Assembly (NCBI GenBank): GCA_964387845.1
Contig: CAYLXA010000004.1
Coordinates: forward strand, 32,001 to 96,000
From: an uncultured bacterium
GTDB lineage: Bacteria > Omnitrophota > Omnitrophia > Omnitrophales > Abzuiibacteriaceae
Direction: 5' to 3'
DNA length: 64,000 bases
Both the position numbers and the translations under genes were made by a program. Positions 17,851-49,253 of the stretch are shown one piece after another (within the stretch, counting starts at the first letter, position 1; each line of letters opens with the position of its first letter). The notes below the pieces were generated by a model. It was given only the letters and a program-made list of their open reading frames with translations. It was not told the DNA's origin and searched no databases.

Positions 17851-18046
17851 AAAGCTTTGAAGAAGCCCGCCGCTCAGTGGATTCACCGTGAGAAATCTAT
17901 TCGCTCCGGCATTGGAACGCCTTCCGCCGTTCCCCCGCAGCTTTGTTTCGCAAAACGAAGCAGCGGAGGCCGTCGGCTTTCCAATGCCTCCGCACATGAT
18001 TTCTCATACGCAAATCCAATTCGCGTCGGCGCTTCTTCAAAGCTTT
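17851..18046. mobile_element. MITE-like element, copy 1 (about 196 bp), with 16 bp terminal inverted repeats aaagctttgaagaagc / gcttcttcaaagcttt.
   Basis: About 85% identical to 49086-49253. Perfect terminal inverted repeats. No credible coding capacity. Confidence 0.7.
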
Positions 18047-18077
18047 GTTGCATATTGAGCACCATTGATATTTGCGA

Positions 18078-18230
18078 AAGCGGCGTCGAGAGACAACCTG
18101 CTTCTCGGAGCGCCATCATGAGGCCATGATTCCGATCGAATCATGGCCGAATGGGCTGAGCACGATGATTTTTGCTTAGGCAGACCGCCTAAAAATCATC
18201 GCGCGGAGGAAAGCGGAGAGAAGCAGGTTG
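18078..18230 (+). ncRNA. Copy B of the three-copy structured intergenic module. It has two hairpins (18122-18148 and 18164-18200).
   Basis: Contains gcggcgtcgagaga. The gagcacg + gatgatttttgcttaggc...gcctaaaaatcatc hairpin covaries with copies A and C. Confidence 0.4.
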
Positions 18231-18343
18231 GCTTAAGACCGAAGATTGTTTTGGCGCTAATTTAAGTGCTTCGCAATGACGGTTGAGCTTTAAAAGCCTG
18301 CCTTCCTAAAGACTTTTAACCGACTTATTTTCAGATTTATCGC

Positions 18344-18370
18344 GTGTGGGTAGAGTTTTGTCTACCCACA
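18344..18370. promoter_or_regulatory. 9 bp-stem inverted repeat (gtgggtaga gttttg tctacccac) upstream of the RHS gene.
   Basis: Read directly. Function unknown (operator or terminator). Confidence 0.3.
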
Positions 18371-18469
18371 GTAGATAAACCGCACTTTTTTGCTCTCCAA
18401 CATTGATTTTGTTTGACAGAGTGTCTATCTTTTTCTCACGAAGCAAAATTTCTTTCGGGAGGAAAGAAC

Positions 18470-45321: not shown

Positions 45322-45323
45322 TC

Positions 45324-46328
45324 ATGAAATTATCCAAATTTTTATCTATTACGATTGCGGCTTTGGTTCTCTTTCAAACGCCGCTGCAAGCAAAGGGCAA
45401 AGTAGAGCTTTTGAATGTCTCTTACGATCCGACGCGTGAGTTTTATCAAGATGTTAATCGAGCTTTTGTTCAATTTTGGGAAGCCAAAACAGGGCAGAGC
45501 GTTACCATCCGGCAATCACACGGCGGAAGCGGAAAGCAGGCGCGTTCGGTGATCGACGGACTTGAGGCCGATGTCGTCACATTAGCGCTTGCCTATGATA
45601 TTGATTCTATTGCGGAAAGAGGGAACTTGATTCCGAAGGATTGGCAGTCGCGGCTTCCAAATAACAGCTCGCCGTATACGTCGACAATCGTTTTCCTGGT
45701 CCGAAAAGGAAATCCGAAGGGCATTCGTGACTGGGATGATCTGGCAAGGCCGGGCGTTTCCGTTATCACGCCAAATCCAAAAACATCAGGCGGTGCGCGG
45801 TGGAATTACTTAGCGGCTTGGGGCTATGCACTTCAAGAATGGAAAAATGATGAGGCAAAGGCCGAGGAATTTGTGAGAGCGGTTTACAAGAATGTTCCCG
45901 TTTTGGATTCCGGTGCGCGCGGAGCGACGACAACATTCATTGAGCGCAATATCGGCGATGTTTTAATCTCATGGGAAAGTGAAGCGTATTTGGCGATTAA
46001 GAAAGTGGGTGACGGAAACTTGGAAATTGTAATGCCTTCCGCCAGCATTTTAGCGGAACCGCCTGTTACTGTGGTTGATTCTGTCGTGAGCAAGCACGGA
46101 ACCAAGGAAGTAGCGGCGGCCTATCTCGAGTTTCTTTATACGGAAGAAGCGCAGAAAATTACGGCGCAGCATTTTTTCCGACCGCGTTTAGAATCTACCC
46201 TGAAAAAATTTGGTTCATTCTTTGCGGAAATCGAAATGTTTACGATTGACGATCTCGGCGGGTGGCAAGCCGTGCAAGCAAAACATTTTTCCGACGGCGG
46301 TATTTTCGATAGGATTTACGAATCATGA
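45324..46328 (+). CDS. sbp: Sulfate/thiosulfate ABC transporter substrate-binding protein.
   Basis: [12 protein letters not shown] ... [29 protein letters not shown] is near-identical to the Sbp/CysP signature. Confidence 0.9.
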
Positions 46329-47149
46329 AGCAAAAGAATATCTTGCCCGGCTTTGGGCTTTCGATGGGGTTTACGGTTCTTTATCTTTCGCTGATTGTGT
46401 TGATTCCGCTTTCGATGCTTTTTATTAAGACCGCTACGCTTAACTGGGAAACTTTTTGGCAGGTGATTTCGGCGAAGCGGGTCTTGGCGTCCTATCAATT
46501 AAGTTTCGCCACGGCTTTTGCGGCGGCGCTGCTCAATTCGGTATTTGGTTTTCTGGTCGCTTGGGCTCTGGTTCGGTATTCATTTCCCGGAAAAGATATG
46601 ATCGATGCGCTGGTGGATTTGCCGTTTGCGCTTCCGACGGCCGTAGCCGGCATTTCACTCACGACGGCATATGCGAGCAACGGATGGATCGGAAGGTTCT
46701 TGGAGCCGTTTGGGATCGAAGGCGCTTTTTCCCCGTTTGGGATCGTGATCGCGCTTACCTTCATCAGCCTTCCGTTTGTGGTCCGGACGGTTCAGCCGGT
46801 TCTGCAGGATTTGGATAAAGAGGTAGAGGAGGCGGCCGTGAGTTTGGGCGCTAACCGGTGGCAGATATTGACCAAGATTATTCTACCAACGGTTGTGCCT
46901 GCGCTTTTAACGGGATTTGCCATGGCATTTGCGCGCTCGCTCGGCGAATACGGTTCCGTTGTTTTTATTTCCGGGAACATGCCGTTTAAAACGGAAATTG
47001 CACCGCTTTTAATCATGACCAAACTCGAACAATACGATTATGCGGGCGCTACGGCGATTGCGGTCGTGATGCTTTTGATTTCATTTATTTTGCTGCTGAT
47101 CATTAATTTGCTCCAATGGCAGACGAGAAAGCGATACGGATTGAACTAA
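46325..47149 (+). CDS. cysT: Sulfate ABC transporter permease CysT.
   Basis: Six TM helices. ABC permease EAA-like loop. Operon context. Confidence 0.85.
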
Positions 47150-48033
47150 TGGCACACGTTTTACATGCGCGTCCTTCTCAAGTTTCGAATCATGCGATCA
47201 GCGAACCGCCGGCCGTGCGGTTTATGCTGACTGCAATCGTGTTGCTTTTTCTTGCGCTTTTTTTAGCGGTTCCGCTTGCGGTTGTTTTGGCCTATGCTTT
47301 TCAAAAGGGAATCGGGCTGTATGCGCAATCAATTTTGGAGCCCGATACTTTGAGTGCAATCCGCTTAACGCTTTTAGTAGCCCTGATCAGCGTTCCGATT
47401 AATACAGTTTTTGGTGTTGCGGCGGCCTGGGCAATTGCCAAGTTTGATTTTAGGGGGAAAAATATTCTGCTCACATTGATTGATTTGCCGTTTTCCGTAT
47501 CGCCTGTTATTGCCGGCATGATCTATGCGTTGCTTTTCGGAACGCATAGCTGGCTTGGAAGCTGGCTTTTGGCGCACAATATAAAAATTATCTTCGCAAT
47601 ACCGGGAATTGTGCTGTCGACGCTCTTTGTTACATTTCCGTTTGTCGCGCGCGAGCTGATTCCGCTCATGCAGGCGCAGGGCAATGAAGATGAGGAAGCT
47701 GCGCTGACGCTGGGCGCAAGCGGACTCCAGACATTTTTCCGGATTACGCTTCCGAATATTAAGTGGGGCCTCATTTATGGCGTCATTTTATGCAATGCGC
47801 GTGCGATGGGTGAATTCGGCGCCGTTTCGGTTGTTTCCGGCCATATCCGGGGGCTTACGAATACGATGCCGCTCCATATCGAGATTCTCTACAACGAGTA
47901 TAACTTTACAGCTGCTTTCGCCGTATCATCCTTATTGGTCGCGCTGGCGGTTGTGACTTTGGTGATTAAGCGGCTTGTCGAATGGAAGGCCGTAAAGGAC
48001 GTGAAAGTATCGGGAGAGATTTATGAGTATTGA
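47116..48033 (+). CDS. cysW: Sulfate ABC transporter permease CysW. The true start is probably downstream of the ORF-track start.
   Basis: Permease fold. Operon context. Confidence 0.8.
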
Positions 48034-49087
48034 AATTAAAAATGTAACGAGGGCTTTCGGTGATTTTAAAGCCGTGCGGGATGTGAGTCTTCATATTCCG
48101 ACCGGAGAGCTCGTGGCGCTGATGGGACCCTCGGGATCCGGAAAAACGACCTTGCTCCGGATGATCGCAGGGCTTGAAACGCCGGATTCCGGCAGTGTTT
48201 TATTCCAGGGCAAAGACGCGACGGATCGCCATGTACGGGACCGCAACGTAGGTTTTGTTTTTCAGCATTACGCGCTCTTTAAACATATGACTGTTTTCGA
48301 AAACGTAGCGTTCGGCCTTCGCGTGCGCCCTAAAAAAGTCCGCCCGTCAGATGCCGAGATTAAGAAAAAGGTCGACGAACTTTTAAAGCTCGTGCTGTTG
48401 GAACGCATGGCAAACCGGTATCCGTCACAGCTTTCGGGCGGGCAGCGCCAGCGTGTCGCTTTGGCCCGGGCGCTTGCCGTGGAGCCGAATGTTTTACTGC
48501 TGGATGAGCCGTTTGGCGCGCTGGATGCAAAAGTCCGCAAAGAGCTCAGGCGATGGCTGAGGCGGTTGCACGACAACCTTCACGTGACGAGTGTTTTTGT
48601 GACGCACGATCAGGAAGAAGCGCTTGAAGTGGCGGACCGAGTTGTTGTTATGAATGAAGGGAAAATTGAACAGACCGGTACGCCGGATGACGTGTATCAC
48701 CATCCGGCCAATTCGTTTGTGTATCATTTCTTGGGCCACGTCAATTTATTCCACGGCCGCGTGGAGGGCAATAAGGCTTACGTCGGCGATATGCCGATTG
48801 AACTTCCGAAAAACGCGAAGCCCGATGTCAAATCTGCCAATATTTATGTCCGCCCGCACGAACTGGATATTGATAAGAATCCGGGCCCGAGCAGTTTTCG
48901 GGCCAAGATTGTCTATCTCAATACAGCCGGCAGCGCCGTACAGGTAGAGCTGACGAGCGATGCCGCAGAATCACTGAGCGTGATTATTTCGCACGAACGT
49001 TACCGAGAACTCGCGATCAAAAAAGGCGACGAGGTCTTCATCCGCCCCAAAGACATCAAAACCTTCCCCGAAGATTTCTCTATCTAA
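48023..49087 (+). CDS. cysA: Sulfate ABC transporter ATP-binding protein CysA.
   Basis: Walker [26 protein letters not shown]-terminal TOBE domain. Confidence 0.9.
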
Positions 49088-49253
49088 GCTTTGAAGAAGC
49101 CCTCCGCTCAATGGATTCACCGTGAGAAATCTATTCACTCCGGCATTGGAACACCTTCCGCTCAAAACGTCGCAGTCATCGGCTTTCCAATGCCTCCGCA
49201 CATGATTTCTCTCTCGCGAATCCAATTCGCCTCGGCGCTTCTTCAAGGCTTTT
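49086..49253. mobile_element. MITE-like element, copy 2 (about 168 bp). Same terminal inverted repeats as copy 1, with an internal deletion.
   Basis: aagctttgaagaagc ... gcttcttcaaggcttt. Immediately after the cysA stop. Confidence 0.7.

Follow-up and report, generated by a model that had tools for sequence, protein, structure and literature searches.

A decaying palindromic repeat beside a three-way-junction repeat unit in the gene spacers of an uncultured Omnitrophota bacterium

The DNA analyzed here is a stretch of 64,000 nucleotides, hereafter the window, from the genome of an uncultured bacterium of the Omnitrophota (family Abzuiibacteriaceae; GenBank assembly GCA_964387845.1, contig CAYLXA010000004.1, positions 32,001 to 96,000). 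It contains two copies, A and B, of a palindromic repeat that we name M1, both lying downstream of co-oriented genes. Copy A starts 50 nt past the stop (position 17800) of a gene encoding a TPR protein of 704 amino acids (aa), and the first two bases of copy B are the final two of the TAA stop of cysA; the first-pass annotation of this DNA, which set each copy directly after a gene stop, is accurate for B and not for A. M1 is not a free-standing insertion: at both loci it is the first of three modules, being followed by a module of about 145 nt, termed unit X, and by a third repeat module, termed the tail. Similarity between the two loci accordingly runs for about 240 nt downstream beyond M1, across two more repeat modules. 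Unit X begins 14 nt past M1 at locus B and 47 nt past M1 at locus A, where 24 of the 47 nt are a fragment of another X. The coordinates of these features are collected in Table 1.

Both copies of M1 carry the ends AAAGCTTTGAAGAAGC / GCTTCTTCAAAGCTTT. A search of the window for the 16-mer AAAGCTTTGAAGAAGC with up to two mismatches returns four matches, which are the four M1 ends, against 0.10 expected from shuffled sequences, and the two copies with these ends thus stand as first described. The inverted repeat, originally called perfect throughout, is so in copy A (16/16) and reads 15/16 at each end of copy B, whose last base is 49252 rather than 49253. Global alignment of A with B gives 152 identical positions among 168 ungapped columns (90.5%), or 152/196 (78%) when gaps are counted, in place of the approximately 85% reported initially. 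The internal deletion ascribed to one copy is real: the gap comprises 28 columns (22 + 6) and corresponds to the tip of the hairpin, missing from copy B. Along its whole length each copy forms a single long imperfect hairpin. Folded as DNA, copy A reaches -57.2 kcal/mol (z = -8.5) and copy B -30.6 kcal/mol (z = -4.4).

The homologous open reading frames (ORFs) of 90 and 88 aa that had been called over the two copies are present, and they share a common frame until the 28-nt indel, beyond which they run in different frames. A chimeric six-frame query built from all open frames of M1 finds no protein relative among 5.8 billion sequences. Given the diverging frames and the lack of any homologue in that collection, we reject the ORFs as real proteins, as did the first-pass annotation, and M1 is non-coding. 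Rfam searches at the gathering threshold recover only two tRNAs elsewhere in the window and nothing at the M1 loci; with E values as high as 10 allowed, neither locus has a credible overlapping match, and no promoter or terminator consensus was found at either. When the A-to-B substitutions are placed on the stems of copy A, seven pairs are broken, two become wobble pairs and none is compensatory. The behavior of M1 is thus that of decaying DNA and not of an RNA fold under selection, because the substitutions break stem pairs and none of the breaks is compensated.

Table 1. Positions of M1, its flanks and the neighboring repeat modules. Coordinates refer to the window unless a contig is named; bits are scores from covariance model R1.
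Feature	Position	Strand	Remarks
M1 copy A	17851..18046	.	196 nt; perfect 16-nt inverted ends; better preserved of the two copies
M1 copy B	49086..49252	.	167 nt; hairpin tip deleted (28 nt); one mismatch per inverted end
Left flank of copy A	17842..17850	.	TCTCTATTT; 8/9 bases match the left flank of copy B (alignment)
Left flank of copy B	49077..49085	+	TCTCTATCT; final cysA codons (Ser-Ile-stop)
371-nt block (M1 B, unit X B, tail B)	49090..49460	.	Absent in L059, L060, L061, L062
Unit X copy A	18090..18234	+	GCGCC...GGCTGAGCACG subtype; 124.5 bits; three-way-junction fold
Unit X copy B	49264..49412	+	GCGGCGTC...GCAGTGAGCACG subtype; outer stem AGAACCTCCTATTGCG / CGCAATGGGAGGTTCT; 131.7 bits
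Unit X copy C	13472..13618	+	136.1 bits
Unit X copy D	13302..13446	-	113.1 bits; outer stem extends to 13294-13454
5' fragment of another unit X	18070..18093	+	ATTTGCGAAAGCGGCGTCGAGAGA; between M1 A and X A (alignments)
Tail module A	18237..18282	+	GACCG..GATTG..CGCAATGACGG
Tail module B	49411..49455	+	From alignment
Unit X outside the window	L050 806-956; L051 27-173, 1544-1691; L052 365-515; L053 5707-5854
Unit X outside the window (continued)	L055 5898-6044; L056 176-322; L064 1038-1189

Closer examination of relatives shows what the spacer at locus B looks like without these modules. The proteins of the window are found only on one NCBI contig and in Logan assemblies of SRR15237813. Most of the 16 window proteins in the Logan collection are without a cluster mate at 90% identity, and the four genes adjoining the M1 copies have no close relative there; the relatives compared here were traced from CysA homologues and from the small number of window proteins with cluster mates. 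The CysA relatives compared are L061 and L062 (94% identical to the window) and L059 and L060 (92%; JGI 3300028648, SRR25730291), and the other related contigs are L057 and L064 (SRR18669184), L058 and L065 (SRR18669186) and L063 (JGI 3300028648). In all four CysA relatives 29-33 nt separate the cysA stop from the next ORF, of 92 aa, compared with 400 nt in the window. What the relatives lack is a block of 371 nt, its junction ambiguous over the shared bases AAGC. The empty site of L061 and L062 reads GATTTTTCGATCTAAGC-A-GCTTGACAGGTTTG, with that of L059 and L060 similar and ending in a TAG stop, and the filled site of the window reads GATTTCTCTATCTAAGC-(371 nt: M1, X, tail)-GCTTGACAGGTTTG. 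Between the two relative lineages CysA identity is 89%, lower than that of either lineage to the window, and for this reason the most parsimonious account is one insertion of the 371-nt block on the window branch.

At locus A, the TPR gene and the response-regulator gene that follows it are separated in L064 and L065 by 273 nt containing one minus-strand X unit. In the window the same interval (17801-26484) holds M1, X, the tail, a gene for a 2167-aa RHS/YD-repeat protein and three small ORFs. This 8.7-kb RHS island is absent between those genes in L064, L065 and L063, and M1 copy A and unit X copy A are situated at its left edge. The pattern of locus B recurs in a further spacer, between a giant gene and def, which measures 400 nt in the window against 47 nt in L057, and which X units D and C together fill in the window. 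The giant ORF (window 52-13290) encodes at least 4412 aa within the window and continues beyond its left end; its counterpart in L063 (1-7292) is called at 17,398 aa.

The surroundings of the two M1 copies also resemble each other. Their left flanks yield the common nine-base consensus TCTCTATYT, which at locus B is ancestral, relatives without M1 reading TCGATCT or TCGATAT there, and the right flanks of the block are similar as well (GCTTTAAAAG versus GCTTGACAGG, the latter ancestral at locus B). Similar flanks fit either a strong target preference or the copying of the whole block with some of its flank. The idea that the palindrome continues into the flanks of M1, or that an inverted copy of the target borders it, was rejected, since duplex energies are no better than those of shuffles (p = 0.16-0.25).

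An independent assembly of the same sample in the Logan collection (SRR15237813) bears on the number of copies. Its contigs end at window position 49115, 30 nt into copy B, and at position 17899, 49 nt into copy A. Logan contigs hold each 31-mer once only (PMC12424806), and the 31-mers at these two contig ends are not common to A and B. Because the contigs end inside M1 at 31-mers that A and B do not share, the assembly suggests further near-identical M1 copies with other left flanks in this genome; at locus B the break in the graph is attributed to a join exactly at the first base of M1.

No transposase gene was seen in the window, as the first-pass annotation had stated, and this includes Y1 transposases; no DDE transposase or insertion sequence with M1 ends was found. 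A Y1 transposase gene does occur in the relative L063, within the same spacer that in the window contains X units D and C, which makes this a candidate enzyme family in the group. The L063 gene itself was rejected as the mover of M1, because it is flanked by GGGGACGGTCCCC-type repeats of the GGGGWSAS type that are unrelated to M1 or X. The GGGGWSAS motif has been reported for tyrosine transposases with long flanking inverted repeats (PMC3733652). Repeats of the GGGGACGGTCCCC type in L063 (7290-7350, 8040-8090 and 12210-12280) are akin to a 28-nt palindrome, GGGGTCAGTCCCCAAGGGGACTGACCCC, that lies inside the coding sequence of def in the window (13767-13794).

Taken together, we consider it somewhat probable that M1 is a non-autonomous palindromic DNA repeat that was moved in trans, spread within this lineage and is now decaying. 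Since M1 carries no gene, the mover enzyme would have to be encoded elsewhere in the genome. Such an enzyme would leave no ordinary target duplication and would prefer a site just 3' of TCTCTATYT. Such transposition would resemble the single-strand kind (Y1/HUH, IS200/IS605 or RAYT-like, RAYT being a tyrosine transposase associated with repetitive extragenic palindromic, or REP, sequences) more than classical cut-and-paste; the dependence on a hairpin, the conservation of the left flank and the missing duplication point towards this tyrosine-transposase type of movement, which has been proposed for REPINs (PMC3116915). M1 would have landed beside older unit X modules and so given rise to a mosaic cluster of extragenic repeats. 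It is probably younger than the adjoining X and arrived separately, because M1 is 90% identical between the loci and the stems of the adjoining X units are entirely different.

Several observations weigh against this interpretation. The empty site at locus B records the gain or loss of the entire 371-nt block, not of M1 alone, and no clean empty site is available for copy A, where L064, L065 and L063 differ from the window by large rearrangements. The order of modules is identical at both loci, which fits block copying, as does the likeness of the flanks on both sides at both loci. Target-site duplications were looked for at each copy, and none is demonstrable: neither copy is bordered by a direct repeat beyond its inverted ends. 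The shared motif AARGC was rejected as a 5-bp target duplication, whether of M1 or of the entire block, because at 3.8 occurrences per kb it carries no weight. The copies actually seen are two, both within the 64-kb window, and strain-level variants could equally break the Logan contigs. Beyond this genome, M1 was found in none of the species-representative genomes, JGI metagenomes, viral contigs, plasmids, phages or the 133 kb of relatives' loci. The scan of species representatives with GAGAAATCN{9,10}GGCATTGGAA gave 46 single matches in unrelated taxa, about the number expected by chance, the lone Omnitrophota match (L010) being unrelated to M1; a 24-base M1 pattern against JGI metagenomes and the inverted-end pattern against viral contigs each gave 0 matches, as did blastn with M1 against plasmids and phages, and blastn and nhmmer against the relatives' loci. 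An element with M1 ends occurs neither in the window nor in the 65 fetched loci, and no autonomous partner was seen in the species-representative, JGI and viral scans, which used internal or short-spacing patterns and did not include the source genome.

Many of these observations are what would be expected had the whole block of M1, X and tail (approximately 370-440 nt) been copied between the loci by recombination or template switching over short similar flanks. M1 would in that case simply be the portion of the copied segment that has survived best. Segmental duplication, which the first-pass annotation had itself named as the alternative to mobility, is still a live rival, because neither a target-site duplication nor a partner element has appeared, the modules keep the same order and the flanks are shared: on the left 8 of 9 bases agree, and these are ancestral cysA codons at B, and on the right the similar sequence at B is ancestral too. 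The absence of a transposase fits as well. Divergence between the two blocks is nevertheless uneven, M1 having retained 90.5% identity and the tail about 63%, while the X units differ in subtype and in all stem bases, so that one copying event is insufficient; moreover, the Logan breaks at the left end of M1 (49086 plus 30 nt) point to copies with other left flanks. We regard block copying as possible, though on the unlikely side. Still less probable, in our estimation, is that M1 is a cut-and-paste element whose palindromic target duplication, AAGCTT or AAAGCTTT, lies hidden in the outer inverted repeat. The outer 8 nt of each end, AAAGCTTT, are self-complementary, and for that reason a perfect direct repeat, AAAGCTTT...AAAGCTTT, encloses copy A; copy B shows AAGCTTT / AAGGCTTT, and the ancestral site at B contains AAGC-A-GCTT. 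With two copies, however, a hidden duplication and an ordinary 16-nt inverted repeat are indistinguishable, the bases that adjoin copy B on its right are not those of the ancestral flank, and the searches for a DDE transposase or insertion sequence with such ends returned nothing.

Finally, the position of both copies downstream of co-oriented genes and the great stability of their hairpins could be taken to indicate a selected cis-acting RNA, such as a terminator, or a hairpin for mRNA stabilization or processing within the 3' untranslated region of the preceding gene. This we judge highly improbable: the stem pairs are broken without compensation, copy B has lost the tip and half of the folding energy, the relatives do without M1 at locus B, and neither a terminator or promoter consensus nor a credible Rfam match at E up to 10 was obtained at either locus.

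Unit X, next to both M1 copies, has four copies in the window and also occurs in metagenomes. A degenerate pattern drawn from its conserved part returns seven homologues in JGI/ENA metagenome contigs, and three further units, one each in L051, L064 and L065, lie in loci fetched otherwise. All copies fold alike into a three-way junction. The outer stem, P1, is 13-27 bp long and differs in sequence in every copy, P2 is a hairpin of variable sequence, and P3 is a conserved stem with an internal loop; conserved bases at the junction are RAGCGSC, GYWGTGAGCACG and CG.GCGGA...AGCG. Over 13 units, 95.5% of the cells pair, and both sides have changed in 27 of the 38 pairs. Covariation is strong, with a score of 0.765, compared with 0.20 for shuffles (0/500 reach it) and 0.10-0.14 for slid partners, in an alignment that was fitted to the model and therefore flatters these numbers; RNAalifold on a plain MAFFT alignment detects compensated changes in 25/38 pairs. 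The fold is strand-specific, since G-U pairs are frequent.

The orientation of X relative to neighboring genes varies, among the window copies as well as in L051 and L064, which speaks against a leader-type regulator. No Rfam family matched unit X. A reading of X as an integron attC site was rejected, as the outer ends of most copies lack the conserved AAC...GTT boxes. In L051, two inverted X units flank a DUF1643 gene and a hypothetical gene. The outermost 12 nt of the stem of copy D, TCTGCTGCCCTC (13294-13305), resemble the empty site TCTGCTATCCCC of L057 (3945-3956), and part of this outer stem may, in this single case, derive from the target. The tail follows the pattern GACCG..GATT..CAATGACGG and is also of the form AGATTGYTTYGGC...GCCTCGCAATGAC; tail-like copies occur in L059 (19538-19578 and 12779-12822), and one of these closely precedes the gene for a phosphate-binding protein.

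Our proposal for unit X is a tentative and rather doubtful one, namely that it represents a widespread, undescribed three-way-junction family, either a new mobile element whose outer stem is rebuilt at each insertion or a multi-copy functional RNA. If X is mobile, M1, X and the tail might move as one composite through single-stranded DNA; if it is a functional RNA, a processing signal or a self-cleaving ribozyme would be candidate roles.

Other repeats populate the window. Tandem arrays of 7-nt units occur at 16403-16473, 23363-23417, 30841-30870, 32188-32214, 39566-39597, 39978-40108, 41463-41539 and 51137-51166; they are often paired with a complementary array, giving a hairpin, and two lie inside long ORFs (those of the TPR and RHS proteins). 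Heptamer tandem repeats of this sort are familiar from cyanobacteria, which the window arrays recall. A-T-rich inverted-repeat elements made of 7-nt units are found at 14248-14344, 26360-26463, 40337-40442 and 51132-51230, at least two of the four directly after the end of a gene (14248 after def, 51132 after a 442-aa ORF), and at one of the four lies the start of Logan contig L048 (window 14315). Hairpin repeats of the form CCCTCTCCC...GGGAGAGGG lie at 15272-15310, 15642-15681, 16201-16239, 28034-28073 and 29463-29502, and in L051 at 185-230, where the repeat adjoins unit X. In the window they surround a DUF559 gene (15312-15686), overlapping its end, and also occur inside the TPR ORF and in or at the ends of tandem histidine-kinase genes. 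The latter form a run of four paralogues of about 1.4 kb each (26878-32430); L063 has five, of the HisKA_7TM type.

These comparisons show the gene spacers of this genome to be mosaics, with at least four types of repeat that have no counterpart at the same sites in relatives. M1 itself adds one lineage-restricted palindromic repeat to a long list, and its importance is chiefly that it marks recent change in the genome and breaks assemblies of this uncultivated lineage. Unit X is the more surprising object, the shape of its junction being kept across distant metagenomic copies while the stem sequences have changed wholly. Were X mobile, how a copied element gains a new outer stem each time would become a mechanistic question; were it an RNA, it would constitute a new, abundant and directly testable class of structured RNA.

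Among known systems, the clusters of M1, X and tail call to mind the bacterial interspersed mosaic elements (BIMEs), mosaic clusters of extragenic repeats in enterobacteria (PMC3184786). In both, several unrelated short palindromic modules stand in fixed order in the spacers between co-oriented genes. M1, X and the tail nevertheless have no sequence relation to the modules of enterobacteria and are much longer than these, and X is a three-way junction rather than a simple hairpin.

In palindrome-associated elements derived from IS200/IS605 the two ends differ from each other and carry small subterminal hairpins, and a terminal inverted repeat is lacking; these elements produce no target duplication, show conserved sequence on the left flank only and depend on hairpins. 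M1 shares with them the conservation of the left flank (TCTCTATYT, in two copies only), the lack of a demonstrable duplication and the hairpins. These elements are asymmetric, however, and M1, as a symmetric palindrome bounded by inverted ends of 16 nt, does not belong to this type.

REPINs are doublets of REP sequences that form hairpins and are mobilized by RAYT tyrosine transposases (PMC3116915, PMC3733652). Like M1, they consist of two inverted arms and a spacer that together make one long hairpin, they are extragenic and clustered or mosaic with other repeats, and no target duplication is expected of them; Y1 transposases are present in the group of organisms that carries M1 too, as L063 illustrates. 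REPINs measure 71-110 bp (PMC3116915), so that M1 is two to three times longer, and their REP units of 20-40 nt bear a GTAG or CGTC tag, whereas the arms of M1 are approximately 85-98 nt. GTAG is absent from both M1 copies, whose ends read AAAGCTTTG, and no RAYT flanked by M1 was seen, the window containing no Y1 transposase. REPINs also reach high copy numbers, against the two copies of M1 seen. M1 is thus REPIN-like in form but lacks the size and the tag of REP sequences.

The remaining comparison is with the miniature inverted-repeat transposable elements (MITEs) of bacteria, the class to which M1 was first assigned, as defined by Delihas (2011; PMC3184786) and exemplified by Correia, ERIC, RUP, Nezha and Chunjie. 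Those elements have terminal inverted repeats, are smaller than 200 bp and lack a transposase gene; they place a long stem-loop at the 3' ends of genes, exist in size variants that arise by internal deletion and, in the test used for Nezha, are recognized by filled and empty sites between relatives (PMC3184786). M1 likewise combines inverted ends, small size, a lack of coding capacity, a hairpin downstream of genes, a size variant with an internal deletion and, for the 371-nt block as a whole, filled and empty sites. Of the multiple dispersed copies that a MITE would have, two lie in the 64 kb, and the Logan contig ends inside M1 suggest others. A TA direct repeat flanks Correia and ERIC-like elements, in contrast to M1, which has no demonstrable flanking repeat, and no insertion sequence with ends matching those of M1 is known. 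The MITE label is therefore only partly supported: the small size, the inverted ends, the hairpin and the insertion absent from the orthologous site speak for it, and the lack of a demonstrable target-site duplication, of an autonomous partner and of any other copy in the collections searched against it. Broadly understood, the term MITE covers M1, which in form comes nearest to hairpin repeats of the REPIN, ERIC or Correia type.

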